DNA of 64,000 nt from Candidatus Melainabacteria bacterium 17Bon1m (GTDB taxonomy: Bacteria > Cyanobacteriota > Vampirovibrionia > Obscuribacterales > Obscuribacteraceae), in assembly GCA_032128875.1 (NCBI GenBank), contig JAVLKG010000005.1, positions 448,001 to 512,000 of the forward strand, given 5' to 3'. This document shows positions 2,662 to 31,243 of this stretch, piece after piece. Made by a program: the position numbers and the translations under genes. How positions within the stretch are numbered: position 1 is the stretch's first letter; each line of letters starts with the position of its first letter. A model generated the notes under the pieces. The model was not told the DNA's origin. It searched no databases and worked only from the letters and a program-made list of their open reading frames with translations.

Positions 2662-3792
2662 TTACTTCTGCCAATAAACCGCCGCACCATCAACTTCAAT
2701 GAGAGGTGCTTCTATTTTTCGCTCGTACCTAAAATCTATAATTGCCTTTTTGCAGGTTTCTAATAAATAGTCATCAACAATTACAAATCCATTTTCGGAA
2801 ACCTTGTCGTACAAGGCGTTTAGTGCGTCCATTGTTGATTCGTAAAGGTCGCCATCCAATCTCAAAATAGCTAGTCTTTTGATCGGCGCCACTGGCAGCG
2901 TGTCTTTGAACCAACCTTTTAGGAAGTGCACTTGATCGTCTAAAAGTCCAAATTTCTCAAAGTTCTGTTTCACTGTCTCAATTGAAACGGCCAATTCTTT
3001 CAGAGTCCAGTGGGGATCTCCTTTGTCAGCCGGATACTTTTCTGCATCGGGTTTTGGTAAACCTTCGAACGAGTCAGCAACCCAGATTTTTCTGTCATTT
3101 TGCAAGTAAGCACGACATATTGCTCGCATGTAGATACACGCACCACCACGCCAAACTCCAGTTTCTATAAAGTCCCCAGGTATGTTTTGCTTTATCACTT
3201 TCTCGCAAAGAAACCTGAGATTAGCCATTCTGGCGCGCCCGATCATTGTCACTGCCTCAGAAGGCCAATCCCAACCAATTTCTCTCAAGTCAGGGTTGAA
3301 ATCATCTGAAGAGCCAACCTGTAGTGGTTTGTCTCGATACAAGAGACCTACCAGAGCCTTTTCTAGAAGGTCTAAATAGAGTTTGGTGGAAGTGCTATCA
3401 AAACCTTGTGCCTCAGAATCTCCAACCTTCAAATGCTCGAGTTTTGAGTCAATGGCATACTCCATTGTCGAAAGCTTACCTAGCACTCGTGCAAAACTTT
3501 GCCCGACTTGCTGTTTGAGGTGAGCAACCTCTCCTCTCAATAATTCTCGCTCTCTGGTGAGAGTGGCATTATCTGCGCGAAGCTCACGACACTCAGCTTT
3601 TGCGAGTTCAAGCTTCTCTTGAAGATCTTTGATTTGACCAATGATACTGTCGTATCGGTTTCGAATCGCCGGGATTGAGAGCGCGACCGAACGTACAAGA
3701 GTTTTCGTCACATCAAACCCCTTTGAATTACCGGACCTAGACTCCTGAATCGGTATGTTAAAACCTTCTACGCCGGTTTGTATTTCATTCAA
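2662..3792 (-). CDS. TylF/MycF/NovP-family sugar O-methyltransferase with N-terminal coiled coil
   Basis: Motifs GDFIETGVWRGG, DSFEGLP, KGWFKDTLP, LRLDGDLYESTMDAL, VDDY. Heptad-like N-terminal segment QIKDLQEKLELAKAECRELRADNATLTRERELLRGEVAHLKQQ. Confidence 0.92.
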   Translation of the reverse strand: MNEIQTGVEGFNIPIQESRSGNSKGFDVTKTLVRSVALSIPAIRNRYDSIIGQIKDLQEKLELAKAECRELRADNATLTRERELLRGEVAHLKQQVGQSFARVLGKLSTMEYAIDSKLEHLKVGDSEAQGFDSTSTKLYLDLLEKALVGLLYRDKPLQVGSSDDFNPDLREIGWDWPSEAVTMIGRARMANLRFLCEKVIKQNIPGDFIETGVWRGGACIYMRAICRAYLQNDRKIWVADSFEGLPKPDAEKYPADKGDPHWTLKELAVSIETVKQNFEKFGLLDDQVHFLKGWFKDTLPVAPIKRLAILRLDGDLYESTMDALNALYDKVSENGFVIVDDYLLETCKKAIIDFRYERKIEAPLIEVDGAAVYWQK

Positions 3793-5666: not shown

Positions 5667-8600
5667 ATGCCTCGTCGCACGGATATCTCTAAAATCCTCA
5701 TCATTGGCTCCGGTCCTATCCGCATAGGTCAAGCTTGCGAGTTTGACTATTCCGGAACCCAGGCGTGCCAGGCGCTCCGCCAGGAGGGCTTTGAGGTCGT
5801 TCTGGTCAATTCCAACCCGGCGACCATCATGACCGACCCAGAAGTCGCTCAGCGGACTTATATAGAACCTTTGACCACAGAATTTGTGGAAGCGGTAATT
5901 GCACGCGAACGTCCGCAAGCGTTACTGCCGACAATGGGCGGGCAAACGGCTTTGAACATTGCGGTGAATTTGCACGACCAAGGCATTCTTCAGCGCTACG
6001 GTGTTGAACTAATCGGCGCAACTATGGAAGCGATCAATGTCGCTGAGGACAGGGCTCTTTTCCGCAGCAAGATGATAGAAATCGGCGAACCTGTGCCGCG
6101 TTCATTCATTGCGCATTCGCTAGAAGAAGTCGAAGAACACAAAGACGAGATCCCTTTGCCTTGCATCATTCGTCCTGCTTTTACTCTCGGTGGCACCGGC
6201 AGTGGTGCGGCTGACACTTACGAACAATTAGTGGCGGCCTGCCGCATCGGTTTGGCTGCAAGCCCTGTCAGTGAAGTTCTTATCGAAGAAAGCGTTTACG
6301 GCTGGAAGGAAATGGAACTCGAGGTCGTACGCGATAAGAAGGATAACTTCATCGTCGTTTGCGGCATAGAAAACCTCGATCCGATGGGCGTTCACACCGG
6401 CGATTCGATTACCGTCGCGCCGATACAAACGCTTAGCGATCGCGAGTATCAAAAGCTTAGAGATGCCGCAGCGAAGATTATCAGAGCGATTGGAGTCGAT
6501 TGTGGTGGTTCCAATATTCAATTCGCCGTCAACCCGGTGAATGGTGATTACATCGTCATCGAGATGAATCCGCGCGTGTCGCGTTCGTCCGCACTGGCAA
6601 GTAAGGCGACGGGCTATTCCATTGCTAAAGTAGCTGCGAAGCTCGCAGTCGGCTTTACGCTTGATGAACTCAAGAATGAAGTGGCCGGAATTTCAGCTTG
6701 TTTTGAGCCATCAATTGATTATGTGGTGACCAAAATCCCTCGCTTCAATTTCGATAAGTTCTACGGTGCAAAAGATGGTCTAGGTACTGAGATGCGCTCG
6801 GTGGGCGAGGTTATGGCGGTCGGTACTACTTTTGCCGAATCCATGCATAAGGCTCTGAGAAGTTTGGAACTCAATCTGGCTGGATTTACCGAAACGCCTG
6901 GACGTGCCGCAGCTACTCGTGAGCTATTGACCCAGAGACTGGCGACTCCGTCGCGCTATCGTCTCACCGATATCGCCACTGCTTATGCCCAGGGGTGGTC
7001 GGTTGAGGATGTGCAAAAGGTCTCGAAAATAGATCCGTGGTTTCTCCATAATTTGAAAGAAATTTGCGACAACGAGCGCGGTGCGCGAGCCGTAATTGCA
7101 AAAATCATTGAGAATTTCGGTGTCAAAGCACTCTTCCGCGAGTTTGAAGCGGGCTTGCTTTTGCGTCTCAAGCGCGAGTTCTTCAGCGATGCTCAAATTG
7201 CATCATTTATCAATTCGGCAGTTGGGCGTGAAGTTGCCACTGAAGGTGCCATTTACGCTTTTCGCCAACGCCTCGATTTGCGCCCGGTGTATAAGGCCAT
7301 CGACACTTGCGCCGGCGAGTTTCCCACTCAAACGAATTACTTGTACTCGACATTTGCTCCGGCTCGAGAAGAATACAAAGCTGACGACTCCCAGAAAGTG
7401 ATCATCCTGGGCAGTGGCCCGAATCGCATCGGACAAGCCATCGAGTTTGACTACTGCTGCGTTCAAGCCAGCTTGGCTATAAAAGAGCAAGGCAAGAAGT
7501 CGATCATTGTTAATTGCAATCCTGAAACAGTCTCAACAGACTACGATGTTTCTGATGTTCTCTACTTTGAGCCGCTGACTCTTGAATCAGTGAGCAATAT
7601 TCTTGCCGTAGAAAAGCCGCTTGGAGTGATTGTGCAATTCGGTGGACAAACGCCGCTCAATCTTGCCGAGAAGCTGGAAGCCCGTGGATTCAAGATTTTG
7701 GGAACTTCGGTGAAAGCAATCAAGCTTGCCGAAGATCGCTCCAGTTTTAGAACAGTTTTGTCCGAGCTGGGCATCAGGCAGCCGGAAGGCGCCATTGTTC
7801 ATACCCGTGACGAGGCGCTGAAAGCTGCACGCTTGTTGGGCTTCCCTGTTCTGCTACGACCGAGCTTTGTTCTTGGTGGAAAAGCGATGCACATTGCTCG
7901 CTCTTCGGACCACTTGCTCGAATTGATTGATTCTATTTTTGCGGCGTCGCCGGATCAGCCACTTTTGATCGATCGCTTTTTACAGCATGCTGTTGAAGTT
8001 GACGTTGATGCACTTTCAGATGGCGAGACGACTATCGTAGCCGGCATAATGGAGCACATCGAAGAAGCCGGAGTTCACTCCGGAGACAGTTCGTGCGTGC
8101 TGCCTTCGGTGTCTTTGTCCGAAGAATCAAAATCTCGCATTGTCGCTGCTACCGAAGCAATTGCTGAAAAACTGTCCGTCAAAGGTTTGATGAACGTTCA
8201 GTACGCTATCAAAGACGGTGAGCTTTACGTGCTTGAGGTAAACCCGCGTGCCTCGCGCACTGTTCCATTCGTTTCAAAAGCAACCGGAGTATCGTGGGCA
8301 AAGTTGGCGACCCGAGTGATCATGGGTGAAAAGTTGAGCGACTTGAAGCCGCTTATTCAGCCGGTCGACAATGGTTATGCCGTTAAGTCTGTCGTCATTC
8401 CTTTTGAGCGATTTGTCGATGCACAAGTTTGCCTCGGTCCTGAGATGCGCTCAACCGGTGAGGTTATGGGCCAGGGGGCGAGCTTCGAGGAGGCTTATGC
8501 CCGCGCGCAAATCGCGTCAGGAAAAGCCTTGCCAGTCAATGGACCGGTTCTTATTGCTGCCTCGGAGCATTTGATTGGTGAGGCGCTAAGTGTTGTTGAT

Positions 8601-8993
8601 GTTTTCCGGCGGCATGGCACCGAAGTGATTGTCACTTCCGAGGTTGCTGATTCATTCGATCCCATGAATGCTGATGCGGAAATTATTGATTTGACCAATT
8701 GGCGCATAGAGGACATAGCTGCCTGGATGAAGAAGGCTAACGTCAAACGCGTGGTCAGTTTGTCACCTTTCGACAAACTCTGTCCTGTTCAGGCGAAAGT
8801 TCGAAGAGCTGCCGTGGGACAGGCGATTCCATTGAGCATGACCACCAGAGATGCAATTGGTGTTAGCCAGGCAACAATGACGGTCTCGAAAATGAGTTTG
8901 CAGTTGAAAGCGATTCAAGAGCGCCGTGCTGCGGCTCCTCAGCCTCAATTCGCGGGCGCACCGGCAGCGCCGGTTGGCCAATTTACTATTTGA
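5667..8993 (+). CDS. carB: Carbamoyl-phosphate synthase large subunit
   Basis: [40 protein letters not shown], second ATP-grasp [36 protein letters not shown]. The C-terminal allosteric domain is diverged. Confidence 0.97.
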
Positions 8994-9107: not shown

Positions 9108-10946
9108 GTGACCGGAAAAGTTCGAATACTGGGGATCTCGGCTTATTACCATGACTCCGCCGCTTGCCTTGTAGAAGACGGTGTCATTGTTGCTGCGGCG
9201 CAAGAAGAGCGTTTCACACGGATAAAGGGCGATTCTAGTTTCCCTCACAATGCAGTTGGTTTTTGCCTTGAAACTGGCGGGATTACCGAAAAGGACATTG
9301 ATTATGTCGTTTTCTACGAGAATCCATACGCCAAGTTCGACCGACTTTTAACCACCTATCACGCTACTGTTCCGGCGAGTTTACCTTCATACCTGCGCAG
9401 TTTGCCGGTATGGTTGACTCAGAAATTGTGGATGAGAAAACAGATTTCCGAAGAGTTGGGCGTGAAAAAGCATGTCTACTTCTGCGATCACCACTTGTCG
9501 CACGCAGCCAGCGCCTTTTTTCCATCGCCATTTGAAGAAGCTGCGGTGCTTACGATCGATGGCGTCGGTGAATGGTCTACGACCACTTACGGCATAGGCA
9601 AAGGCGACGATCTGAAGCTGCTCAAGCACATTCGTTTTCCTAACTCACTTGGGTTGCTTTATTCGGCATTTACGTACTACACCGGCTTCAAAATCAATAG
9701 CGGTGAGTACAAATTGATGGGTCTTGCGCCTTACGGCAAGCCAATTTATGCACAGATGATCATGGAAAAACTGATCACCGTTGATGAAGAAGGTGCAGTT
9801 GCTCTTAACCAACATTACTTTGACTATGTTGGTGGACTGACCATGACTAATGCTCGTTTTGATGAGCTTTTCGGCGGACCTCCTCGGGAGCCGGAATCAA
9901 TCATTCGCCAGAAGGAAATGGATATTGCCGCGAGTATTCAGAAAGTTTTGAATGACGTCCTCATCATCATGGCTCGTCATGTGAAGGAAGCAACAGGAGC
10001 CAAAAACCTGGTGTTGGCCGGTGGAGTAGCGCTGAATGTAGTGTCTACTGGAATACTTTCGCGCGAAAAAATCTTCGAGCAAATCTGGATTCAACCGGCG
10101 GCTGGAGATGCCGGTGGCGCGCTTGGCGCTTGCCTCTGGATGTGGCATCAGGTTTTGGGCAAAGGCAGAACCGTTCAAAAGCCTGACTCCATGTCCGGTG
10201 CTTTCCTTGGTCTGGAAATCCCCGATTATTCCGAAGAGGATGATGCCGTGCTTCGCCGAATGGGCGCTGTTTGGCAAGAGATGGATGAAGAGACTCTGCA
10301 AGACGCAATTGCCGAGGCTATCGACAATGGAGAGATCGTTGCTGTAGCTAGAGGCCGCGCTGAATTTGGACCAAGGGCGTTAGGAAGCCGTTCTATTCTT
10401 GCCGATGCGCGCAGTCAGAAAATGCAAAGCCACTTGAACTTGCAGGTGAAGTTCCGCGAGAGCTTCCGACCTTTCGCTCCGATGGTTCTGGCTGAAGACG
10501 CTGAGGAATACTTTGATATTCCGCAAGAAAGTCCGTATATGTTGCTCTGTTACCCGGTTTTGGAAAAACAGAGAATTGCTGTGCAGGATAAGGGGCTGTT
10601 CGGAATCGATCTGTTGAAACAACCCCGCTCTAAGTTGCCGGCAATCACTCACGTGGATTACTCGGCTCGTGTGCAGACAATTGACAGAGACAGAAATCCG
10701 TTTATTCATTCTGTCATCAGCAAATTCAAAAGCCGCTCCGGCTGCTCGGTAATCGTCAACACGTCATTCAACGTGAGGGGCGAGCCGATTGTGAACACCG
10801 CAGAAGATGCATATCGCTGCTTTATGGCCACGGAAATGGACTGCGTGGTGATTGGAAATCGTTTCTTTAGAAGAAAGGACCAGCAGGAAAAACCGCTCAG
10901 CGAAGAAGAAAGATCTGCCTGGTTGAGGAGGTTCGACCTTGACTAA
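9108..10946 (+). CDS. O-carbamoyltransferase, NodU/CmcH/SxtI family
   Basis: LGISAYYHDSAA, QEERFTRIK, HHLSHAASAF, DGVGE, GEYKLMGLAPYG, AGGVALN, AGDAG, EFGPRALGSRS, KFRESFRPFAP, THVDYSARVQT, NTSFNVRGEPIV. Confidence 0.96.
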   Translation: MTGKVRILGISAYYHDSAACLVEDGVIVAAAQEERFTRIKGDSSFPHNAVGFCLETGGITEKDIDYVVFYENPYAKFDRLLTTYHATVPASLPSYLRSLPVWLTQKLWMRKQISEELGVKKHVYFCDHHLSHAASAFFPSPFEEAAVLTIDGVGEWSTTTYGIGKGDDLKLLKHIRFPNSLGLLYSAFTYYTGFKINSGEYKLMGLAPYGKPIYAQMIMEKLITVDEEGAVALNQHYFDYVGGLTMTNARFDELFGGPPREPESIIRQKEMDIAASIQKVLNDVLIIMARHVKEATGAKNLVLAGGVALNVVSTGILSREKIFEQIWIQPAAGDAGGALGACLWMWHQVLGKGRTVQKPDSMSGAFLGLEIPDYSEEDDAVLRRMGAVWQEMDEETLQDAIAEAIDNGEIVAVARGRAEFGPRALGSRSILADARSQKMQSHLNLQVKFRESFRPFAPMVLAEDAEEYFDIPQESPYMLLCYPVLEKQRIAVQDKGLFGIDLLKQPRSKLPAITHVDYSARVQTIDRDRNPFIHSVISKFKSRSGCSVIVNTSFNVRGEPIVNTAEDAYRCFMATEMDCVVIGNRFFRRKDQQEKPLSEEERSAWLRRFDLD

Positions 10947-11610
10947 GACTGCATTAGCTGAAAGAAACGAAGTTGCCTTCAGACCCAATCGCAATGCGCG
11001 GGGCTCAGGTCATGTGAGCTCTTACATGAAGCGCTTGAACGTGCGCAGAGAGCGCGCGGCTTTGAAAAACAACGTTATTTTTGGACTGACAATCGGCTGG
11101 GTGCTCACTTTGATGGGCGCTTTCAAAACTTACATTTTGCTTGAAAGCGGCGTGTCGCAGCTGATGCTGGTCGCTGGTGTGGCATTCCTCGGCACCACGC
11201 TTGTTGCGCCCGGACTGATGATTTATCCGCATAAAGTCATGAAAGGGATCGCTACTTTTGTTGGCACCAATTTGTTCAAAGGAATTCTTTGTGTTGTTTA
11301 TTTCCTGACTATCCTGCCTGCAGGACTTATCTACCAGAAGAAAAACAATCACGAACCCTTTTACTCATGGGCAGCGGGTAATGCTCCTAAGATTGAAGGA
11401 TGGACGGAAAAAATTGCCTCTGACGAAAATGGTAAGTCTTCCGAATACAGCTTGCCTGGTTGGCTGCAACCACTCTCTGTCGTGATCTATTTCGCGCGCA
11501 ACAGTCAGTTGCTTTTCCTTCCTTGCTTGATCGTACTTCTCATGCTCGGATTGATCGGAGTTTTTGTTCAAAGCAGTGCGTTGGCTCCATTTATATACAC
11601 ACTGTTCTAA
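10939..11610 (+). CDS. SxtJ-like membrane protein fused to an SxtK-like (DUF5989-type) C-terminal membrane peptide
   Basis: Three hydrophobic segments including N..ILCVVYFLTILPAGL (SxtJ-like), then LPCLIVLLMLGLIGVFVQSSALAPFIYTLF (SxtK-like). Overlaps the carbamoyltransferase stop, the usual context of these families. Confidence 0.8.
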   Translation: MTKTALAERNEVAFRPNRNARGSGHVSSYMKRLNVRRERAALKNNVIFGLTIGWVLTLMGAFKTYILLESGVSQLMLVAGVAFLGTTLVAPGLMIYPHKVMKGIATFVGTNLFKGILCVVYFLTILPAGLIYQKKNNHEPFYSWAAGNAPKIEGWTEKIASDENGKSSEYSLPGWLQPLSVVIYFARNSQLLFLPCLIVLLMLGLIGVFVQSSALAPFIYTLF

Positions 11611-11634
11611 GAAGCTGTTTTAAGAGGAAGAGAG

Positions 11635-13215
11635 TTGCTGGAATTAGCTAGCAAGCCAAAAACAAGCAAAGCAGCTCCGCGTCATTTGTCCGCGGGGACT
11701 GTTGCTCTAACGTCCATCGGCTACTTTGCTGCGTCGCTTGCGATTATCGTCGGTGCTGCATTTGCTCTTGACCGCTGGATTATTCCCGAGATGGAAAATC
11801 GCGGTTATCTCGAATCTCATTTGTGGGCGGATGAAAATCATCAGCTCAATCACTTCACCTATGTGAAGAATGAAGCGCGTAAGGAAAACCCTGTCTGGCG
11901 TTCGCAGTATATTCCCGTAACTGCAGAGCATCCTGGCAAACAGCGAATTCTCGTTATCGGCGATTCATTTGTTTGGGGGGATGGTTCTAACAATGTGAAC
12001 ACCCTCTGGTGGCGCCAATTAGAGCTCGAGCTACAACATCGTGGCTACAACAACGTTGAAATCGTTGCGGCCGGATTGAATGGTGCCAGTACGCACGACC
12101 AGCTGAATTGGTTGGGTTCGATCTTGCCGAAATACACGCCAGATCTTGTGATATTTGGCTGCGTCACCAATGACGCCGATGAAAAGGATGCTAGCGGTAA
12201 GTCTTATGTGCGCATGATTCCGAAAGAATTGCCCGCACGAGAAAGTGCTGATTCTAAGCTGAACAGTCTCTTGCCAAATCTGTCCGGACAGTTGGAGCAG
12301 ATAAGTAAACTCTCGCGCCTGGCTCATTTGAGTCAGAAGTCCACAGCATTGGAATATGCAGATTGGGAACTTGCCTTGTTGAAAGGACAGAATTTCAAAG
12401 CGTATCAAAATACCGTTTCGTCTCTTGCTAATCAATTGAAAACCGCTGGTGTACCGGCCTTTGTAATTTCGCTTCCGGCTGGTTTTCAAAACAAGACAAA
12501 AGAAAACACAGCCGGCGGACAAAACTTCTTCGATAGTGTGAAGGCCTACAATGAGCAGCGTTTTTCCGCTTTTGCGCCAGTGTTCAAGTCCTCGGGTCTA
12601 CTCTTTGTTGATACGACCGAAGCATTCGCAAAGGCTGCATCTGCCGATCCCCGTTTGAAGTCGAGTGGCTCGCCTCTGCGTCTGGGAATAAATCCCAGCA
12701 ATGGACATCCTGGTCCGTTCTCGACCCACTTCTATGCTGTTTCTGCTGCCGATACTATCGAGCGAAATTTCCCTGCTCTCTTGACCAAAACAGCCAGTGC
12801 ATCCAATTCGACTGTTTCCAGATCAGGCGTTGAGATAAACGACTGCATGCCGCCGTATATGAACGTGCGTGCTGATGAGAAAGAGGCTGGCAGTTTTCAG
12901 TTCACCTATCCGCCTGATGTTGCTGAACATACTTTGTTCATGCCGTTGCGTCGCCGTCACGTTCAACTGTCCTTAAAAAAACCAGCTCAAGTTCATACCG
13001 TTGAAATCAGCGGAGACAACCTATCTGCTGCACAGATTTATCCGAGCTTTTTCGATGCCAAACTTGGCTACACGCCGGACGAATTCTCATCGTTGCCACT
13101 TAAAAAGGGAAATGTGCTTACCTGGAATTTGGGCGACAAACAACTGAGCGCACTCAAGATCCGCGCTAGCTTTAATGGCGGCAATCAGGCGCTCAAAATC
13201 CATTTTACGAACTAG
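11635..13215 (+). CDS. Membrane-anchored SGNH/GDSL-fold protein
   Basis: N-terminal TM helix; block I RILVIGDSFVWG, block II GLNG, block III TND, block V-like PSNGHP. Paralog at 23468..25024. Confidence 0.85.
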   Translation: MLELASKPKTSKAAPRHLSAGTVALTSIGYFAASLAIIVGAAFALDRWIIPEMENRGYLESHLWADENHQLNHFTYVKNEARKENPVWRSQYIPVTAEHPGKQRILVIGDSFVWGDGSNNVNTLWWRQLELELQHRGYNNVEIVAAGLNGASTHDQLNWLGSILPKYTPDLVIFGCVTNDADEKDASGKSYVRMIPKELPARESADSKLNSLLPNLSGQLEQISKLSRLAHLSQKSTALEYADWELALLKGQNFKAYQNTVSSLANQLKTAGVPAFVISLPAGFQNKTKENTAGGQNFFDSVKAYNEQRFSAFAPVFKSSGLLFVDTTEAFAKAASADPRLKSSGSPLRLGINPSNGHPGPFSTHFYAVSAADTIERNFPALLTKTASASNSTVSRSGVEINDCMPPYMNVRADEKEAGSFQFTYPPDVAEHTLFMPLRRRHVQLSLKKPAQVHTVEISGDNLSAAQIYPSFFDAKLGYTPDEFSSLPLKKGNVLTWNLGDKQLSALKIRASFNGGNQALKIHFTN

Positions 13216-20318: not shown

Positions 20319-21302
20319 ATGATTCTTGTCACCGGAGGCGCCGGGTACATCGGCAGTCACTTCGTTCGATACTACACGCAGTGCCGTCCGGCAGAAAAAA
20401 TTGTTGTTCTGGATAATCTGGTCGAAGGGCATCTTGAAGCTCTGGAAGGGCTATCGAATGTACACTTCGAACGTGCAGATATTAACGACTTCGATGCAGT
20501 AAAGGAGATTCTGAAAAAACATTCGGTAGATGCAGTCGTTCATTTTGCATCGTACTGCTACGTTGGAGAGTCACAAGAAAACCCCAGCAAGTACTACGAA
20601 AACAACGTTGTGGGATCCATCAGTCTATTTCGCGCGATGGATGAATGTGGTGTAAAGAAGCTTGTTTTTTCTTCGAGTTGTGCGACATACGGTGTGCCTA
20701 CAAAGTTGCCGATTGATGAGACTCATCCACAAAATCCTATCAACGTGTACGGATTGACGAAATTTTTGATCGAAAGAATTCTCGAAGGTTATGCCTATAC
20801 GAAGGACTGGAGTTTTACCGCTCTTAGGTATTTCAATGCTGCCGGAGCCCATCCGGAGGCTCTAATTGGCGAAAGCCACGCACCGGAAACACACATAATT
20901 CCGCTTGCCTTAAAGACTGCATTGGGCACAAAAGAACAACTGCATGTGTATGGAGATGACTATGAAACTCCTGATGGCAGCTGTATTCGCGATTATATCC
21001 ATGTGGAAGATTTGGCCTCGGCGCATTTACTGGCCGTGGAAAAATTATCTGAACAAAAGGGTGGACAATTCATCAACCTCGGCACTGCCCATGGTGCATC
21101 AGTAAAAGAAATCGTCGCTTTATGCGAAGAAATCACGGGCAAAAAAATCAATCATTCTTTCAGTCCTCGACGCTCTGGCGATCCCGCACGCCTGGTGGCC
21201 GATCCTGGCAAGGCTGTCAGTTATTTGGGATGGCGGCCGCAACATGATTTGCGTTCGATTATTGAGACCGCTTGGAAGTGGGAGCAAAACAAACGTTACT
21301 AA
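20319..21302 (+). CDS. galE: UDP-glucose 4-epimerase
   Basis: TGGAGYIGSH, VGES, FSSSCATYG, YGLTK, LRYFNAAGA, DGSCIRDYIHV. Confidence 0.93.
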   Translation: MILVTGGAGYIGSHFVRYYTQCRPAEKIVVLDNLVEGHLEALEGLSNVHFERADINDFDAVKEILKKHSVDAVVHFASYCYVGESQENPSKYYENNVVGSISLFRAMDECGVKKLVFSSSCATYGVPTKLPIDETHPQNPINVYGLTKFLIERILEGYAYTKDWSFTALRYFNAAGAHPEALIGESHAPETHIIPLALKTALGTKEQLHVYGDDYETPDGSCIRDYIHVEDLASAHLLAVEKLSEQKGGQFINLGTAHGASVKEIVALCEEITGKKINHSFSPRRSGDPARLVADPGKAVSYLGWRPQHDLRSIIETAWKWEQNKRY

Positions 21303-21303
21303 G

Positions 21304-23286
21304 ATGAATTCTGACGAACGGGTCGAAGCTCTCGCACGCGGGGTATTGATTCTCGCCTGCTCGCTTGCCGCTTTTGGTCTTGCCTTTGTGCTTCCTGACG
21401 GAAAACCGTTTGCCGATCAGGGCTTTAATTGGTATGTAAATTCCGGACAGCACAATCTGCTGGCGCCCAGAATTGCGTATGTCTTCTTTTGTCTTTCCCT
21501 CTCTATTTGCGCCGTGCTTCTCAATCGTGGAAAGACACTCTGCTTAGGTTTTACAAGAAGTCATTTCCCCATTCTTTCAGCCGTTGTTTACTTGTCGGTT
21601 CTCGCCTTTGGCGCTGCTGCTCTCATTCCTTTCGTCAATCAACTGGCAATATTGGGTGTATCGGTCATTCTCGTCTGCGTATCTGTTTTCGCCTTCCGGA
21701 TTTTGCCTCGAAGAACCGTTGATTTGCTGCTTTTGATTTCTGCCGTCGCCGCTTTTCTTATTGCATTGGTGCCTGGGCTGTCTTCGCTCCCAGACCTCTC
21801 TTCGCACTTCCCGGAATCAATTGCCGATATCGAAGCACACCAGGCACTTTCCACTGCTGCAAATGTTCAGCTCGCTCAAGGCGCAAAGCTTTTCCAGGCG
21901 GTTTCTGCCCGCTACGGCATTTTATGGCAATCGCTTCTCGGGGCTTGGACAACGCTCGTACATCCGCTAACGGTGGGTGATTCGATCATGTTTACTCGTT
22001 GGCTACACACTTTGTTTTTTGCATTTGCGTCATTTGCTTATTTCAAATTCTCTCGCAACAAAGTTATTGCAGCGTGTCTGGCAATTCTTTTCATCGCACC
22101 CTGGATGGAGCTCAGGCAGCCGCTTTTCGTTTTCCCTCAAGTGTCATCTTGGCGTTATTTTGGATTTGCGGCCGTACCACTGATAGTTCTTCTTTTAGAG
22201 CGGACCGCTGCTAAGACAAAGTTCTTTATATTGGGCATTACCGCAGGTCTTTGTCTTTTGTCTGACTTCGCTTCCGGTATTTCAATCGCCGTAGGGCTTC
22301 TGGCATATACCTGCTTTTTGAAACAGCAAGACGCTCGACTTAAATTGATTGGTTTGTATCTGGGTGGAATCATCATCTCAATTGCTGTTTTCTTTGGCAC
22401 CTTTGCTGCGATTTTCGGCTATGTGCCTTCTGCATCAGCGTTCATGATCGACCTAAAGAACACTATCTGGGAAGCTGCCGGCGGCACTGCTCCTGCTCTC
22501 AGCTATCCATTCGACCCGCTCGCTATTTTGATTCTTGTGCACACTGCATATGTATGCCTTTCGATTGTGTCGCAAGCAAAAGGTTCAGTTTCGCCGCGAA
22601 ACGCATTGCGGCTCTCTATCGGAATAATTTCGTTGTTGTGGTTTGTGCATTATGTGAATGAACCGAATACTTTTGCATTGCGAGCTTGCCGTGTGCTTTA
22701 TGCGTTCTTTTTGATTGACCTGTTTCGAATTCTGTTGGTCACTAAAAAGTTTCGCTTGCATGCAAAAGAACCGCTCTGGATGGCGCGTTTGCTGCTGCTT
22801 GCCATTGTCGTTCCGGCTGCTGTCTTGTCGTACCAGCCGGCTGCCGAAAAGGCTTGGGCAATGGTGGCTGGAGAGACCCGCAAAGACAGTGCCAAAGTGC
22901 TTGTTTCCGGCGTCTGGTTGCCGGAAGAAGTTGGTCGCGCATTGCAGCAAAAGGCGAAGTTTATCCAACGAATTTCGGGTCAAAAGCCCATCTATTACTT
23001 GACTGCAGACAGTTCTTTTATTCCGGTACTGTCGCAAAAAGTTTCCGCTGCACCTGTGGCGGACCCGACCAACTTGGTTTTTGCAAAGCAGTGCGATCGG
23101 CTCGTACAAGCAATAACAAATGCAGGAGCGAATGAAATTTTTGTGGACGATCCTGATTTTGTCACGTCGAAAGGCGTGGTGCGACGGAGCTGTTTTGATT
23201 ATTTGCGCGTCCTTCTCTCTCGAAATTACCAGCTTGTAAGCACGTCTGACGGCTGGCAGGTCTGGCAGAAAAAACAACGCCAGTAG
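21304..23286 (+). CDS. Polytopic membrane protein, possible GT-C-fold glycosyltransferase
   Basis: More than 10 hydrophobic segments plus a C-terminal soluble domain. ATG directly after the galE stop. No diagnostic motif recognised. Confidence 0.55.
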   Translation: MNSDERVEALARGVLILACSLAAFGLAFVLPDGKPFADQGFNWYVNSGQHNLLAPRIAYVFFCLSLSICAVLLNRGKTLCLGFTRSHFPILSAVVYLSVLAFGAAALIPFVNQLAILGVSVILVCVSVFAFRILPRRTVDLLLLISAVAAFLIALVPGLSSLPDLSSHFPESIADIEAHQALSTAANVQLAQGAKLFQAVSARYGILWQSLLGAWTTLVHPLTVGDSIMFTRWLHTLFFAFASFAYFKFSRNKVIAACLAILFIAPWMELRQPLFVFPQVSSWRYFGFAAVPLIVLLLERTAAKTKFFILGITAGLCLLSDFASGISIAVGLLAYTCFLKQQDARLKLIGLYLGGIIISIAVFFGTFAAIFGYVPSASAFMIDLKNTIWEAAGGTAPALSYPFDPLAILILVHTAYVCLSIVSQAKGSVSPRNALRLSIGIISLLWFVHYVNEPNTFALRACRVLYAFFLIDLFRILLVTKKFRLHAKEPLWMARLLLLAIVVPAAVLSYQPAAEKAWAMVAGETRKDSAKVLVSGVWLPEEVGRALQQKAKFIQRISGQKPIYYLTADSSFIPVLSQKVSAAPVADPTNLVFAKQCDRLVQAITNAGANEIFVDDPDFVTSKGVVRRSCFDYLRVLLSRNYQLVSTSDGWQVWQKKQRQ

Positions 23287-23467: not shown

Positions 23468-25024
23468 TTACTTCACTTCCAGAATCAAACCGCGATTAGC
23501 TCCTATGACTTTCGCAGATATGTTGATAGTGTTTATCCCTCGACCTTTTGCTTCCGGTAATTTCCAGGAGAGCCACGAGCCATTTTTGTTTCCGAGACTG
23601 AACATTTCGCCATTGTCGAAATGTTTTGCTGCATCCACATTCGTTATGTAGAGCGATGCGCCCTTGAGCCCTGTGCCTCCTAGGGTAATTTCCTTCGCAT
23701 TGATAGGCGTTTCTAAATTGAGCTCGATGAATGGCTTTCTCAAAGGCATATTGCGGAAGTCGTCCGCCAATTTCATTGGATATACAACAACAATTTTGTT
23801 GTCTGTCTGTTGGATTTGTAAATTGGGCGGAATGCAGTCGTTGACGCGTAACTGGGCGTCTTTCGATGTGGGCTCACTGGACTTTGTGCCAAGAATCGGC
23901 GCAAAATCCTTTTCTAAAACATCAGCCGCATGAACACCGTAAGCATATGTTGCCCATCTGTTCGGATGCGCGTTGGCAGGATTTACGCCAAAGGACAGGA
24001 CACCCTTTTTTACAAGGCTGTCTTCTTTTCTGGCTGCGTTGATCCATGTGTCGTAGCTGTCTACAACACGAACATCGCGATCCTCGAAGGCTTTTTTGAT
24101 CGGCGGAAAAACGCGATCATAATGTGCCTTGATTCCGTCGAAGTCGACTTTTCCAGGGCACTCATATGGCAAAAGCATGATGAATGAAGGGATGGAGAGG
24201 CTGTGCAGATAATTTGCTGTATTGTCGAGCGTTTTGCCGTACATGCTCCAGTTCTCGCCGGAAAGCAGGCTAAACTCCCAATTGGGCGGGTTATCCTTTG
24301 TGAATTCACCTGAGCGTGTCTTACGCAGATAAGCTTCCCGCAACGCGATCAGTTGATGTGAAAGATGTGGGTACAGTCCTTTGAATGCTTCGAGTAATCC
24401 ATTTTGGCGATGAGGACGGAATAGCAACTTCTGGTCGAAGTCTGCTGTTTGCATTCGCGACATTTCGTCTGCGTCATTGGGAATATATCCCCAAATCACG
24501 AGGTCAGGCTTGAATTTCGGGATTACCTTTTTGGCAGCATCGAGTTCTAAGCGCGTGTTTAAGCCCTGCATTCCGGCTGCGATTATTTCTACATCTTTGT
24601 AGCCGCGACGCTCCAATTCTCTGGCCAGCTGACGCCACCAGATGTCGTTCATGTTGTTGTAACCATGACCCCATACGAAAGAATCGCCAATTACCAGAAT
24701 GCGATGAGCTTTGGCAGACTTCTCTGCGACCGGCCACAAACTGGAGTGCCAGACAGGATTTTGATTGAGATCTGCTTTATTCCTGGCGTGTGCCCAGTAA
24801 TAGATGAAATCGTCCTCTTCTGTCCACGACGCTGAAACGATTTTGCCTTCGTCTTCCAAGGCAGGGATGATCAAGCGATCAAGCACAACAGAGACAAGCA
24901 AGATGAATGCCAGCGAAATCGAGAAATACTTAACGCTAAGTTGCGGAAATATTGCCGCTTTCGTATGAGGTTTCTCTGATTTTTCAGCGCTAATTTTTTG
25001 AGTCACTTCGCCGGCAGCAATCAC
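23468..25024 (-). CDS. Membrane-anchored SGNH/GDSL-fold protein, paralog of 11635..13215
   Basis: LDRLIIP, NPVWHS, RILVIGDSFVWG, WWRQL..EL.RRGY, NDADE, GVNPANAHPN, VNDCIPP, MPLRK, all matching the paralog. Confidence 0.85.
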   Translation of the reverse strand: MIAAGEVTQKISAEKSEKPHTKAAIFPQLSVKYFSISLAFILLVSVVLDRLIIPALEDEGKIVSASWTEEDDFIYYWAHARNKADLNQNPVWHSSLWPVAEKSAKAHRILVIGDSFVWGHGYNNMNDIWWRQLARELERRGYKDVEIIAAGMQGLNTRLELDAAKKVIPKFKPDLVIWGYIPNDADEMSRMQTADFDQKLLFRPHRQNGLLEAFKGLYPHLSHQLIALREAYLRKTRSGEFTKDNPPNWEFSLLSGENWSMYGKTLDNTANYLHSLSIPSFIMLLPYECPGKVDFDGIKAHYDRVFPPIKKAFEDRDVRVVDSYDTWINAARKEDSLVKKGVLSFGVNPANAHPNRWATYAYGVHAADVLEKDFAPILGTKSSEPTSKDAQLRVNDCIPPNLQIQQTDNKIVVVYPMKLADDFRNMPLRKPFIELNLETPINAKEITLGGTGLKGASLYITNVDAAKHFDNGEMFSLGNKNGSWLSWKLPEAKGRGINTINISAKVIGANRGLILEVK

Positions 25025-25256: not shown

Positions 25257-28139
25257 TTGCAACAGTTGATTGACTCGTGGAATGCATTGTCAGAGCGCAA
25301 GAGAGACGGCGTTTGTCTTTTGCTGCTCACGTTGTTTTGTTTAATTGTTTTCTACAAGACCGTGTTTTTGGGTCAGCAGATTAGCCGAATATTCGAAATT
25401 GCCAATATCGACTATTTGTTCAGGCAAGCCTTGGCTGTTCCAATCAAGTATGACCAGCACTGCATGTTCGCCAAAGTGTGCGCATACCTGTTGATTGGTA
25501 CAACTTGGAGAGAAGGCATAATGCCGTTTTGGAATCCGTACATAGGGTGCGGTGCTCCATTCATGGCCGAGCTGCAGTCTGTTGTGTTGTCACCGTGGAC
25601 GTTGTTCTACGTTTTGTGGCCCAGTCTTCAGATGCACAGCTATCTGCTTGTTGCACAGCAGGTTTTGGGAGCGATCGGAATGTTCCTCGCTGCGCGCGCT
25701 TTAGGGCTTTCGCGTTTTGCTTCAGTATTGGCTGCCGTTGTGCATTTGTGTTGCGCTCACCAGCAGTGGCGCCTCGAGTTGCAGATGAATCATTCTTTCT
25801 ATCCGCTTACCGTTTGGTGTTTTGTTCGTCTGTATCAGACGAAGCATTTTTTATGGGCTCTGGCAGCAGGCGCTGGATGTGCGGCGCAAATTCTTTCCGG
25901 CGACGCACAAGTAAGTTTGCTTTCCATAACCACCGTCAGCGTTCTTTTTGTCTTGATGAACCTTCTTGGCGAAGCCAGGCAAGAAGCGTTTTTCAAGCGT
26001 GCGATTGAGGGCGGCGTTTGGTTGTCGCTGGCAGGAATTAACGCAATTTGTTTGGCGTCTCCAGTCTTTCTCGGCTTTGTAGAATGGGTCAAGATAGGCG
26101 ATTTGTCTAAGCACCATGCCTATTATGCAGTTGGAAATCCCGCTCCCTGGCAGAGTCTTGTCTATACTCTGATGCACCCCGGTTATGGCGGTTCATCGTT
26201 GTACGCCGGTTGTTTGACTCTGCCCTTGATTGTCTTTTCACTGCTTGCAATAAAGCAAAAACGCCCTTTCTATCTCAGCGTTTTGCTTACTGCAATTTAT
26301 GCTTTCATGAGCGCGTCTCGCACGGGACCGTTTCCTTTACTGGACTCGAAACTCGGTCTCATGGGACTTTCTCGATTCGAGGGAATGGAGGTTTTCCTTG
26401 TCCAAATCGCTTTTCTCATGGCGTTTGGCCTGGATGAACTGGCCAGATGCAAGTGGACTGTGAGAAATTGGGTTTTTCTTGCGGCCGTTGCCTCCTCTAT
26501 TGCGTCTCTTGCAATTCCTCCTTATCTCGCGAAGATAGGCGTAAATCTCGAAGCGTTTACGTTCGACTTTCATTCGGAAGGATACGGCTTTCAATCGCAA
26601 CAGTGGTATTTCGATCTTGCCTTGGTTTGTGCCTTTTGGGTTCTTCTAGTTCTCGTAAATAGCTATCGAGCAAAGCTGAAGAGCATCGCAGTTATTTTGC
26701 TTTTTGTTATTCCACTGTGCATAAACACAAGCAGCGAGGTCTTCGCTTGCAAAAATGCCTTGCCTAGTTATCCCAAATTCAAGTATCCGAAGACAGAATT
26801 ACTCCAATTTCTTGCTGAGAAAAAAGAGCGCATTGTTCCTATTGGATATAACCTGTTAAGACCAAACAACAATGTTGTTTATAAAATCTCGAGCATGGCG
26901 TGGGCTGGACCTCTTGTGCCTCCGCGGCTGCACAAATTCATAATAGCTGCAGGTGGGCACGCTGATCCATTTACAAAACTGTTTACCCCTGGCCCTCTAA
27001 ACCATCTGCTCGATTTGGCGAGCATCCGATACATCCTTAGTTTTGCTCCTGTGCGCAGTCTGAGCGAACCATATACTTTCGAATCACCTACCGCGCAACC
27101 TGTGAAATTCAAAATTGAACAACGGGTAAGAATGGATGCTGCAAAACTTTTCTACGACTCTCCAAAGGGCGAATTTGGCGGATATATAGACTGGTATGTG
27201 CAAGAGGGCGAAGGCGAGAACTTCGCTTTCCAGATTGCTCTCTTTGACTCTAAAACTGGCAGGGTGTATTGGACTGGCGGACCATTTTATGTCCGTCAGA
27301 CAGAGCGCTTGAAGCGCGATACGCGTCCAAAAACATACAGCCGCATGCCGCTGGACGGCATTGTTCCCAACCATGTGCCCGACTCTACAGATTTATGCGT
27401 GGGAATCACTGTCCAGCAGATTCCTGAGATGAATGAGCTCGAGCCGCAAAGTGGCGGAACGCTTGTTAGTAAAACCATGTTCAAGGTCGCAGATTTTAGA
27501 AAACAATCTCTGCCTTTGGATGCGGCGCGACGCTTCAAAATGGTCAAGGAAGTGCCTGTCAGCTTTGTTCGGGTCTATGAAAACAGAAAGGCAATGCCGA
27601 CTGCATATCTTGTGCACAAAACCGTTCTGAAAGAGAAAGAAGACGAAGTTCTTGCAGAAGTGACAAACCAGGCGTTTGATGCGCGATCTGTTGCCGTAAT
27701 CGAAGACAAGAATTTACCGCCATTGACTGGAGCCGATAAGCCGTCCGCCGCCGATGAAGTCACTTCGGTGAGAACCGACAACAATACTTTGTCTGTTGAT
27801 GTGAAAACTGATAAGCCTGGTTTTTTGGTGGTAACCGACCAATATTTCCCTGGGTGGCATGCTGTTGTGGATGGTGCAGAGGTTGCGATCGCGCACGCCA
27901 ATTACCTATTTAAGGGCATTCCCATTGGTCCTGGCACGCACAAAATCATCTTCTATTTCCGCCCGACATTTTGGAATCTTTCGCTCGTTTTATTGGCTCT
28001 CTGTTTCATTCTGAACACTGCAGCCTTTATCTTCCAGCAAAAGCGGCGCAAGGACATTGCTTCGCCTGCTTACGGCAGCGCTTCAACACCTTCCGGGTCT
28101 TTATCTGGAGGTGGTGGAGGCGAGGACGAGCAAAATTGA
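25257..28139 (+). CDS. YfhO-family (GT-C) membrane glycosyltransferase
   Basis: PFWNPYIGCGAPF, many TMs, C-terminal LVVTDQYFPGWHAVVDG..ANYLFKGIPIGPGTHKI followed by a TM. Confidence 0.85.
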   Translation: MQQLIDSWNALSERKRDGVCLLLLTLFCLIVFYKTVFLGQQISRIFEIANIDYLFRQALAVPIKYDQHCMFAKVCAYLLIGTTWREGIMPFWNPYIGCGAPFMAELQSVVLSPWTLFYVLWPSLQMHSYLLVAQQVLGAIGMFLAARALGLSRFASVLAAVVHLCCAHQQWRLELQMNHSFYPLTVWCFVRLYQTKHFLWALAAGAGCAAQILSGDAQVSLLSITTVSVLFVLMNLLGEARQEAFFKRAIEGGVWLSLAGINAICLASPVFLGFVEWVKIGDLSKHHAYYAVGNPAPWQSLVYTLMHPGYGGSSLYAGCLTLPLIVFSLLAIKQKRPFYLSVLLTAIYAFMSASRTGPFPLLDSKLGLMGLSRFEGMEVFLVQIAFLMAFGLDELARCKWTVRNWVFLAAVASSIASLAIPPYLAKIGVNLEAFTFDFHSEGYGFQSQQWYFDLALVCAFWVLLVLVNSYRAKLKSIAVILLFVIPLCINTSSEVFACKNALPSYPKFKYPKTELLQFLAEKKERIVPIGYNLLRPNNNVVYKISSMAWAGPLVPPRLHKFIIAAGGHADPFTKLFTPGPLNHLLDLASIRYILSFAPVRSLSEPYTFESPTAQPVKFKIEQRVRMDAAKLFYDSPKGEFGGYIDWYVQEGEGENFAFQIALFDSKTGRVYWTGGPFYVRQTERLKRDTRPKTYSRMPLDGIVPNHVPDSTDLCVGITVQQIPEMNELEPQSGGTLVSKTMFKVADFRKQSLPLDAARRFKMVKEVPVSFVRVYENRKAMPTAYLVHKTVLKEKEDEVLAEVTNQAFDARSVAVIEDKNLPPLTGADKPSAADEVTSVRTDNNTLSVDVKTDKPGFLVVTDQYFPGWHAVVDGAEVAIAHANYLFKGIPIGPGTHKIIFYFRPTFWNLSLVLLALCFILNTAAFIFQQKRRKDIASPAYGSASTPSGSLSGGGGGEDEQN

Positions 28140-30966: not shown

Positions 30967-31147
30967 TGTGAGAAGATGCCCGAGTGAAGGCGCTGAACGC
31001 CTCATTATAAAAGACACTTGTGCGACTTTCGAGATGCTAAGGCGAAAAAGGCGCTTCTCGGTTTTGTTATTTTTGCCTAATCAACCCGGTCGCCTTGCCC
31101 AGCGCGACTTTCCATGAGCGTGGAATTGTTCTTTCAATGTGTGCAAT

Positions 31148-31192
31148 CTGATATTTGAGTCAGGACTACAAATTGGCAAAGGACTATCATTG
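31148..31192 (+). promoter_or_regulatory. Putative promoter/operator element, copy 2, upstream of a GT4 gene
   Basis: CTGATATTTGAGTCAGGACTA-N4-TTGGC.AAGG..TATCATTG; matches 9015..9060. Confidence 0.55.
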
Positions 31193-31243
31193 AAATCACT
31201 TTTCTATCAACCCTCATTTACACCTTTGTTTTAGACGTTTCTT

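Follow-up and report, generated by a model that had tools for sequence, protein, structure and literature searches.

A single reading frame joins SxtJ-like and SxtK-like sequences

We analyzed a 64,000-nucleotide (nt) stretch of the genome of Candidatus Melainabacteria bacterium 17Bon1m (hereafter the window, in whose coordinates all positions are given), focusing on a small gene that an initial annotation had described as a natural fusion of SxtJ-like and SxtK-like proteins, and that we call J::K. This gene occupies 10939..11610 on the forward (+) strand as a single unbroken open reading frame (ORF) of 223 amino acids (aa) plus stop, from a TTG start to a TAA stop, as seen in the ORF list, Pfam and hhalign comparisons, and public contigs. 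The uninterrupted 223-aa frame previously described holds, with the polar linker (..GWTEKIASDENGKSSEY..) and the C-terminal ..ALAPFIYTLF present as quoted. The TTG at 10939 overlaps the TAA (10944-10946) of the upstream carbamoyltransferase gene by 8 nt, and a Shine-Dalgarno-like GAGGAGG (10925..10931, +), read off the sequence, lies within the end of that gene, 7 nt before the TTG. An alternative start at M30 is used in the gene call of a public collection; since Y29 is conserved in 85% of 125 J::K relatives, however, the start lies upstream of M30. The true start would be TTG 10939, or possibly GTG 11014, and is less certain than the frame.

A single frame of this kind could be an artefact, produced either by faulty sequencing or assembly or by a gene call that merges two genes. 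To evaluate this, we compared the region 10700-11900 with public sequencing data. At least half of the sampled words of this region were contained in 16 public runs from several studies, and it was spanned in one piece by contigs of two runs (X2 and X6) and tiled by contigs of two others (X10 and X13), i.e., four runs from four studies. No indel or joint was found in 10700-11900 across the contigs of these four runs, nor any stop or frameshift between the two halves, which excludes an assembly error; the sole difference was one substitution at 10829, inside the upstream gene. The X2 contigs may stem from the source sample of this DNA, and the X2 contig holding the J::K region comes from an RNA library, although contigs cannot show transcription. 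The same fused frame, with DUF5989 (PF19451) at its end, was found in 30 of 31 close protein clusters (33-100% identity, 194-237 aa), the exception being a 155-aa fragment on a 736-bp contig, and it recurs in 144 of the 150 best representatives described below. With the contigs and this recurrence against it, and nothing found in its favour, an artefactual origin is refuted for practical purposes.

The two halves belong to the SxtJ and DUF5989 families

The C-terminal half was readily identified by Pfam: DUF5989 (PF19451, gathering cut-off 27 bits) matches aa 184-223 of J::K with 37.7 bits (E 2.1e-9, model positions 10-49 of 49), and a PF19451 search of the whole genome returned J::K (40.8 bits) as the sole DUF5989 match. 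For the N-terminal half, the SxtJ model (PF19588, cut-off 24.4 bits) gave no match to J::K at E ≤ 1; among 19 J::K relatives, five reached 17.2-22.3 bits, all under the cut-off, and NCBIfam gave no meaningful match to J::K. We therefore compared the halves with separately encoded proteins, using 30 stand-alone K loci obtained from a PF19451 search of 401 Cyanobacteriota genomes. A hidden Markov model (HMM) of the N-terminal half, built from 17 fused proteins, matched the ORF directly upstream of the stand-alone K gene in 22 of these 30 loci (E 4e-8 to 2e-3, among 795 ORFs), while the C-half HMM matched K in all 30. The ORFs upstream of stand-alone K genes (134-149 aa) scored 49.8-80 bits with PF19588 in 10 of 10 cases tested and carry the public name 'SxtJ family membrane protein', their K neighbours being named 'DUF5989 family protein' or 'SxtK'.

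Profile-profile alignment gave the same assignment. An hhalign comparison of 125 fused proteins with 15 stand-alone J proteins reached a probability of 97.5% (E 6.6e-12) over 100 columns (aa 48-147), and the comparison with 19 stand-alone K proteins reached 98.6% (E 8.8e-16) over aa 180-223. The J::K tail is identical to that of the 19 stand-alone K proteins (..APFIYTLF after one transmembrane (TM) helix), the K part here being the C-terminal 44 residues of a 223-aa protein and not a stand-alone microprotein of about 50-55 aa. The assignment of the two halves proposed from the sequence was thus borne out for the C half by Pfam, and for the N half by profile-profile comparison but not by PF19588. 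By these profiles, J::K is a DUF5989 member at the Pfam threshold and an SxtJ homolog below it, and it is a near certainty that this ORF unites an SxtJ-family membrane domain and an SxtK/DUF5989 microprotein in a natural fusion that is conserved.

The fusion is an old, conserved minority form

Next, we evaluated how widely the fusion occurs. An exhaustive profile search of 1.84 billion representative proteins yielded 1329 matches at E ≤ 1e-3, 198 at E ≤ 1e-10, and 96 at E ≤ 1e-30. Both half-HMMs matched 144 of the 150 best 50%-identity representatives, the remaining 6 matching the J half only. An x-x-Y-x-x-F ending is present in at least 137 of these 150 proteins, most often as FIYTLF (76), followed by LIYTLF (18), FIYTIF (11), and MIYTLF (9). 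Named sources of fused proteins were metagenome-assembled genomes (MAGs) of Obscuribacterales/Melainabacteria, Acidobacteria, and Clostridia, all annotated 'hypothetical protein'; genome loci add fused forms in Rivularia, a MAG labelled Drouetiella, and Thermoanaerobaculia, while a protein atlas provided Binatota and Nitrospirota as leads only.

Within genomes, DUF5989 was over cut-off in 74 of the 401 sampled Cyanobacteriota genomes and fused only in G000 and G378. That J and K are normally separate was thus recovered here, the two being unfused in 72 of the 74 genomes, with separate small J and K genes after the carbamoyltransferase gene in the split loci inspected. A second sample of 301 genomes was drawn from the phylum of the Thermoanaerobaculia genome (L049), which we take to be Acidobacteriota; DUF5989 was over cut-off in 122 of these 301 (121 of 300 without G555, an unpublished genome) and fused in three (G401, G413, and G432). 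The length of an open frame was a misleading proxy for fusion in high-GC genomes: 10 of 10 checked Acidobacteriota frames were split genes in different frames, as was the long frame of one Cyanobacteriota genome (G240), and one candidate under the cut-off (G271) was rejected as a family member. The fusion is therefore a minority form within genomes, yet it comprises at least 144 clusters at 50% identity, i.e., it is a real and old family and no rarity of this genome.

J domains from 69 fused rows (a thinned set of the 125) and 27 split rows were placed in an unrooted maximum-likelihood tree over 98 columns. Fused and split proteins part there on one branch (Shimodaira-Hasegawa-like approximate likelihood ratio test, 87), and a single change of label suffices, a value as low being reached in 0 of 500 shuffles. 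Because the tree lacks a root and similarity to a fused profile was the basis for choosing the fused rows, this fits one ancient fusion or one fission and proves neither. The argument that a natural fusion points to a joint function (Rosetta stone) calls for a fusion that is conserved and deep, which is what the 144 of 150 representatives and the one-branch tree indicate. Since the fusion is conserved, this genetic evidence suggests that J and K act as one unit, and the two may also form a physical complex. Separately, one 22,998-bp metagenome contig encodes a single 801-aa chain (P0165) comprising Carbam_trans_N, Carbam_trans_C, a J-like part, and DUF5989, which could be a triple fusion or could reflect a single indel where stop and start overlap.

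Anatomy and predicted topology of J::K

Four regions can be delineated along the protein, all encoded on the + strand. The N-terminal region (aa 1-45; 10939..11073) combines a clade-specific stretch (aa 1-28) with conserved, K/R-rich residues 29-45 predicted to be cytoplasmic, based on the alignment, the charge profile, and an AlphaFold2 helix starting at 28. It is followed by the SxtJ-like membrane domain (aa 46-147; 11074..11379), with hydrophobic segments at 46-67, 74-93, and 111-132 and an amphipathic basic segment at 94-110, as defined by hhalign, hydropathy, and AlphaFold2. A polar linker (aa 148-179; 11380..11475), predicted to be coil and with E153, G154, W155, and K158 conserved among close relatives, leads to the SxtK/DUF5989-like part recognized by Pfam and hhalign (aa 180-223; 11476..11607), i.e., a short amphipathic helix, a TM helix (192-211), and the tail. 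The last six residues, F218-I-Y220-T-L-F223 (11590..11607), fit the motif FXYXXF, whose first position varies between F, L, and M across the fused family. Only three residues are invariant in all 125 fused proteins, namely P195 in the TM helix and Y220 and F223 in this hexapeptide, while G49, G80, P91, L117, Y121, P127, W144, G204, F209, P217, I219, and T221 are conserved in at least 90%.

An AlphaFold2 model based on the 125-protein alignment (mean predicted local distance difference test score (pLDDT) 82.8, predicted template modelling score (pTM) 0.65) includes helices at 28-66, 72-89, 91-136, 174-187, 191-211, and 215-222, and a coil linker at 137-173. Foldseek returned nothing at E ≤ 0.001 for this model against the PDB, and a wide VIA-align search gave generic helical hairpins only (residues 25-95, Z ≤ 7.6), which is uninformative on fold novelty; the K profile had no match at E ≤ 10 among PDB sequences. 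Hydropathy defines four hydrophobic segments, the three of the membrane domain plus 192-211. K/R-rich stretches lie at 29-45, 99-114, 133-136, 170-172, and 187-189; acidic residues mark the loop at 68-73, and no charged residue occurs in the tail (212-223). Because basic stretches flank the linker while the tail carries no charge, the positive-inside rule suggests a linker inside and a tail outside the cytoplasm. The separately encoded proteins lead to the same expectation: stand-alone J has a strongly basic C-terminal tail (about 8 K/R), and stand-alone K carries ERKK before its helix and no charge after it, so that both of these ends would be cytoplasmic and the tyrosine tail outside.

The tail of stand-alone SxtJ also ends in an aromatic residue, which is frequently preceded by a Tyr at a distance of four or five positions (e.g., ..RYAKRY, ..RYEKGF, ..RYQRQF, and in cyanobacteria ..SMEKPF/Y; loci L062-L071 and the stand-alone J alignment). 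This tail could represent a second, cytoplasmic tyrosine arm; in its counterpart in the fused family, PFYxW, the Tyr is present in only 57%.

J::K is the membrane component of a four-gene cassette

J::K stands in a cassette of four parts, comprising a CarB paralog, an O-carbamoyltransferase, J::K itself, and an SGNH enzyme, and constitutes its membrane component. The CarB paralog (carbamoyl-phosphate synthase large subunit; 5667..8993, +; 1108 aa) has 55% identity to a second CarB copy elsewhere in the genome (L053, G000:C2), and 8 of 20 related fused loci likewise have a CarB homolog upstream of the cassette. The two copies and this recurrence suggest a dedicated supply, and the paralog likely provides the cassette with carbamoyl phosphate.

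Directly upstream of J::K lies the gene for a NodU/SxtI-type O-carbamoyltransferase (9108..10946, +; 612 aa), with matches to Carbam_trans_N (308.8 bits) and Carbam_trans_C (228 bits), and to the NCBIfam NodU model with an E-value of 6.5e-42, below the cut-off of that model. Carbamoyltransferases partnered with J or K share a C-terminal W-x-x-x-F-(E/D/P)-L-D (L062-L073; RRFDLD here, 10923-10943), an ending that overlaps the ribosome-binding site and the start of the next gene.

The gene that follows J::K (11635..13215, +; 526 aa) encodes an SxtL-like SGNH/GDSL protein (Lipase_GDSL_2, 34.4 bits) with a TM anchor, an SGNH domain (S111, G150, N179, H358), and a beta domain at about aa 400-526. 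Across 21 homologs, including cyanobacterial SxtL-like proteins, G109-D110-S111, G150, and N179 are invariant and H358 nearly so, and 4 K/R precede the N-terminal helix of the anchor. A search against PDB sequences gave a chance-level match only, while the AlphaFold2 model (pLDDT 79.4, pTM 0.81), which includes the extra C-terminal beta domain, had as its best Foldseek match 6hfz, a two-domain esterase active on acetylated mannans (E 3e-7), with TesA and acetyl-xylan esterases among further matches. In one relative, the 978-aa SGNH partner of a Thermoanaerobaculia MAG (L049:1233-4166), the protein ends in FG-GAP repeats, an extracellular repeat type. Given the anchor, the beta domain, the likeness to a mannan esterase, and this relative, the SGNH protein is expected to reside outside the cytoplasm and to act on glycans. 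In Rivularia (L050, L051), the SGNH partner is extended at its N-terminus by about 330 aa, which include additional TM helices.

The same gene order was largely retained in related genomes. In 20 related loci found by an N-half pattern, which restricts them to the fused clade, the carbamoyltransferase gene was directly upstream of J::K in 18 (of the other two, one locus was cut and one had none). An SGNH gene followed J::K in 14 and preceded the carbamoyltransferase gene in 8, so that at least one SGNH gene adjoined the cassette in 18 of 20. Around the 30 split cyanobacterial loci, inspected with 1.5-kb flanks, a carbamoyltransferase fragment was found upstream in 22, and an SGNH homolog was detectable downstream in 12. 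Other arrangements included K-SGNH (L059) and J-K-SGNH-SGNH (L060), both without a carbamoyltransferase gene within 8 kb. The order was carbamoyltransferase-J-SGNH-K in a Vampirovibrionia-class genome (L058) and J-carbamoyltransferase-K in three Acidobacteriota genomes (L064, L067, L070), and some cassettes are surrounded by two or three paralogous SGNH genes (L044-L047, L060).

Comparison with saxitoxin, Dlt, and Pat systems

The cassette resembles two groups of known systems. In the saxitoxin cluster, sxtI (1839 bp), sxtJ (405 bp), sxtK (165 bp), and sxtL (1281 bp) are listed in a gene table (PMC2679770). The order sxtI-J-K-L is the same here, with similar lengths (carbamoyltransferase of 612 aa, J, K, GDSL/SGNH). 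Unlike SxtJ and SxtK, however, the J and K parts here form one polypeptide with a linker of about 30 residues, the J part being too diverged for PF19588, and the surroundings are those of a glycan locus instead of a toxin cluster, with an SGNH protein that includes an extra C-terminal beta domain. The sxtJ-sxtK pair also occurs after sxtI in many non-toxic cyanobacteria. Both genes have lacked an assigned function from the first description of the saxitoxin cluster onward (PMC2885083, PMC2684587). DUF5989 was not mentioned in the literature searched, nor was a description of the fused J::K architecture found there, the portions of papers covering SxtJ and SxtK treating both as unknown ORFs.

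The second resemblance is to the acyl-tyrosine shuttles of the Dlt and Pat systems. The Tyr of an FXYXXF 'acyl shuttle' motif is acylated in DltX and PatA and passes the group to a Ser of an SGNH partner, the motif being free in DltX and fused to a membrane protein in PatA and other MBOATs (PMC12148441). The cassette analyzed here likewise combines a TM helix followed by a C-terminal FXYXXF with an invariant Tyr, present in free (DltX, SxtK) or fused form (PatA/AlgI, J::K), an anchored SGNH partner encoded alongside, and a donor activated in the cytoplasm. In contrast to Dlt and Pat, the cassette lacks an MBOAT and a conserved His, its membrane partner is about 100 residues long, and the group proposed to be moved is carbamoyl and not acetyl or D-alanyl. 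The parallel to DltX and PatA drawn in the initial annotation is supported by the motif after a TM helix and by the SGNH neighbour, and not by homology: PF12459 gives no match and J is not an MBOAT.

The upstream enzyme, in turn, shares its two Pfam domains with NodU, NolO, CmcH, and TobZ. NodU/TobZ-type enzymes make carbamoyl-AMP and move the carbamoyl to hydroxyl groups. To our knowledge, the characterized members of this group act directly on soluble or lipid-linked acceptors and have no J, K, or SGNH partners.

A proposed carbamoyl-tyrosine relay

Taken together, we propose that J::K may relay carbamoyl groups, as carbamoyl-tyrosine, to the SGNH enzyme, a reading to which we assign a probability of roughly 40%. 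The cytoplasmic carbamoyltransferase would dock on the J part at the cytoplasmic face and carbamoylate the invariant Tyr220 of the C-terminal FIYTLF, giving O-carbamoyl-tyrosine. From there, the tail would present the carbamoyl to Ser111 of the membrane-anchored, extracytoplasmic SGNH enzyme, which would transfer it to a sugar hydroxyl of an envelope polysaccharide or exopolysaccharide. Such a relay would be the carbamoyl counterpart of the DltB/DltX/DltD and PatA/PatB acyl-tyrosine shuttles with a small, non-MBOAT membrane partner, and the fusion would covalently join what most bacteria keep as two subunits. It is proposed because the logic of the cassette is the same, i.e., a cytoplasmic activating enzyme, a tailed membrane protein that is free or fused, and an anchored SGNH protein. 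Homology, conservation, synteny, and the motif itself are observed, and from them we infer the loading of Tyr220, the membrane side of the tail, its contact with the SGNH enzyme, and the acceptor. Chemically, a transfer from Tyr to Ser is plausible, as aryl carbamates carbamoylate the catalytic serine of serine hydrolases. More tentatively, and with somewhat less weight, the reading might extend to SxtI-J-K-L-type cassettes at large, split or fused, which would then constitute a widespread transmembrane carbamoyl relay with the K tail loaded, J holding K, and the SGNH protein acting as terminal transferase.

Several observations nonetheless weigh against this proposal. Across the 125 fused proteins, the J part has no invariant polar residue able to catalyze an intramembrane transfer, no invariant His, and no MBOAT match in Pfam at E ≤ 1. 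The DltX model PF12459 matched neither J::K (E ≤ 1) nor the 19 stand-alone K proteins (E ≤ 10), nor anything else in the whole genome. The tail itself has low confidence in the AlphaFold2 model (pLDDT 46-56), and a relay would need helix 91-136, modelled as one straight helix, not to cross the membrane. The carbamoyltransferase::J::K fusion requires the N-terminus to be inside, and with four crossing helices the tail would be cytoplasmic, across the membrane from the SGNH domain. In addition, P0165 is a lone sequence, which a single indel could yield. Overall, hydropathy and charge leave the side of the tail ambiguous. Gene neighbourhoods add two further points: second J::K copies (L038:6001-6678, L041:6001-6678) precede a GT4 (glycosyltransferase family 4) gene and not an SGNH gene, in what are the two SGNH-less loci, and two split loci (L057, L061) read GT4-J-K-RNase III and are devoid of carbamoyltransferase and SGNH genes within 8 kb.

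These points leave room for other explanations. J::K might act only as a tether holding the soluble carbamoyltransferase at the membrane near the machinery of glycan assembly or export, with a sugar or lipid-linked intermediate carbamoylated in the cytoplasm, a tail that docks or packs, and an SGNH protein that trims or edits the product. The stop-start overlap and the triple fusion P0165, which link the carbamoyltransferase to J, would fit such a tether, as would the second J::K copies adjoining a GT4 gene, the lack of any conserved catalytic residue in J, and the direct action of NodU-type enzymes on sugar hydroxyls. It would leave unexplained, however, why a Tyr four residues from the end and a terminal Phe are invariant among proteins only 20-40% identical, and why K-SGNH pairs recur without a carbamoyltransferase gene within 8 kb (L059, L060), and we regard it as possible but less probable than the relay.

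Clearly lower still we place a topology with four true TM helices in which Tyr220 is cytoplasmic and carbamoylated as a carrier or regulatory pseudo-substrate, no carbamoyl crosses the membrane on the tail, and the linker, rich in aromatic residues (PFYSW..EGW), faces outward to contact the SGNH protein. Counting four hydrophobic segments from an N-terminus inside does place the C-terminus inside, and the candidate Tyr-loading enzyme is cytoplasmic. The charge pattern argues otherwise, both in J::K (a basic stretch after the third segment with K/R fractions of 0.74, 0.50, 0.50, and 0.57 at aa 133-136, basic residues at 187-189, and the uncharged tail) and in the stand-alone proteins (the J tail with its 8 or so K/R, and ERKK before the K helix), so that this arrangement seems unlikely. 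We consider least plausible of the three that J and K assist the carbamoyltransferase as accessory subunits, carrying no group themselves, and that the SxtL-like SGNH protein is a decarbamoylase or esterase that takes groups off. These are the roles given in published papers, as predictions without experiments. Moreover, a transferase would account more readily than a dedicated removing enzyme for a gene that neighbours the adding enzyme in most cassettes and is present two or three times in some (L044-L047, L060).

The carbamoyl-tyrosine relay thus remains an attractive, unproven mechanism drawn by analogy. If it is true, acyl-tyrosine shuttles would no longer be confined to MBOATs or to acyl groups, sxtJ and sxtK would gain a function, and SxtL-like proteins would be carbamoyl transferases instead of decarbamoylases. 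The relay would also represent a new way of modifying envelope polymers extracytoplasmically and a second, non-MBOAT route by which activated groups traverse the membrane, present in a substantial fraction of Cyanobacteriota and Acidobacteriota. In the literature, searches for a DltX-type shuttle carrying carbamoyl, or for periplasmic glycan O-carbamoylation, returned incidental matches only. The likeness of the cassette to Dlt and Pat makes the relay specifically and cheaply testable. Should it prove wrong, structural studies of the J-K pair could still use the fused family as a single-chain target.

The surrounding glycan locus

The cassette lies inside a surface-glycan locus, whose wider gene content includes a TylF-type methyltransferase, a phosphomannomutase, glycosyltransferases of families 2 and 4, epimerases, a nucleotidyltransferase, and CysN/C. 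The window interval 31017-31244, between epimerase and GT4 genes, matches the site of the second J::K copies in L038 and L041 and holds no J::K copy here; in L041, this second copy has no adjacent carbamoyltransferase gene. Five large ORFs of the locus had no Pfam match at E ≤ 1e-5 (110-1336 and 1365-2699, both -; 21244-23286, +; 23468-25024, -; 39330-41108, +), and two YfhO-like membrane proteins of about 950 aa are encoded at 25257-28139 (+) and 32785-35637 (-). Since the locus also encodes a TylF-type O-methyltransferase (2662-3792, -) and a CysN/CysC fusion (37420-39300, +), its glycan may be methylated and sulfated besides being carbamoylated.

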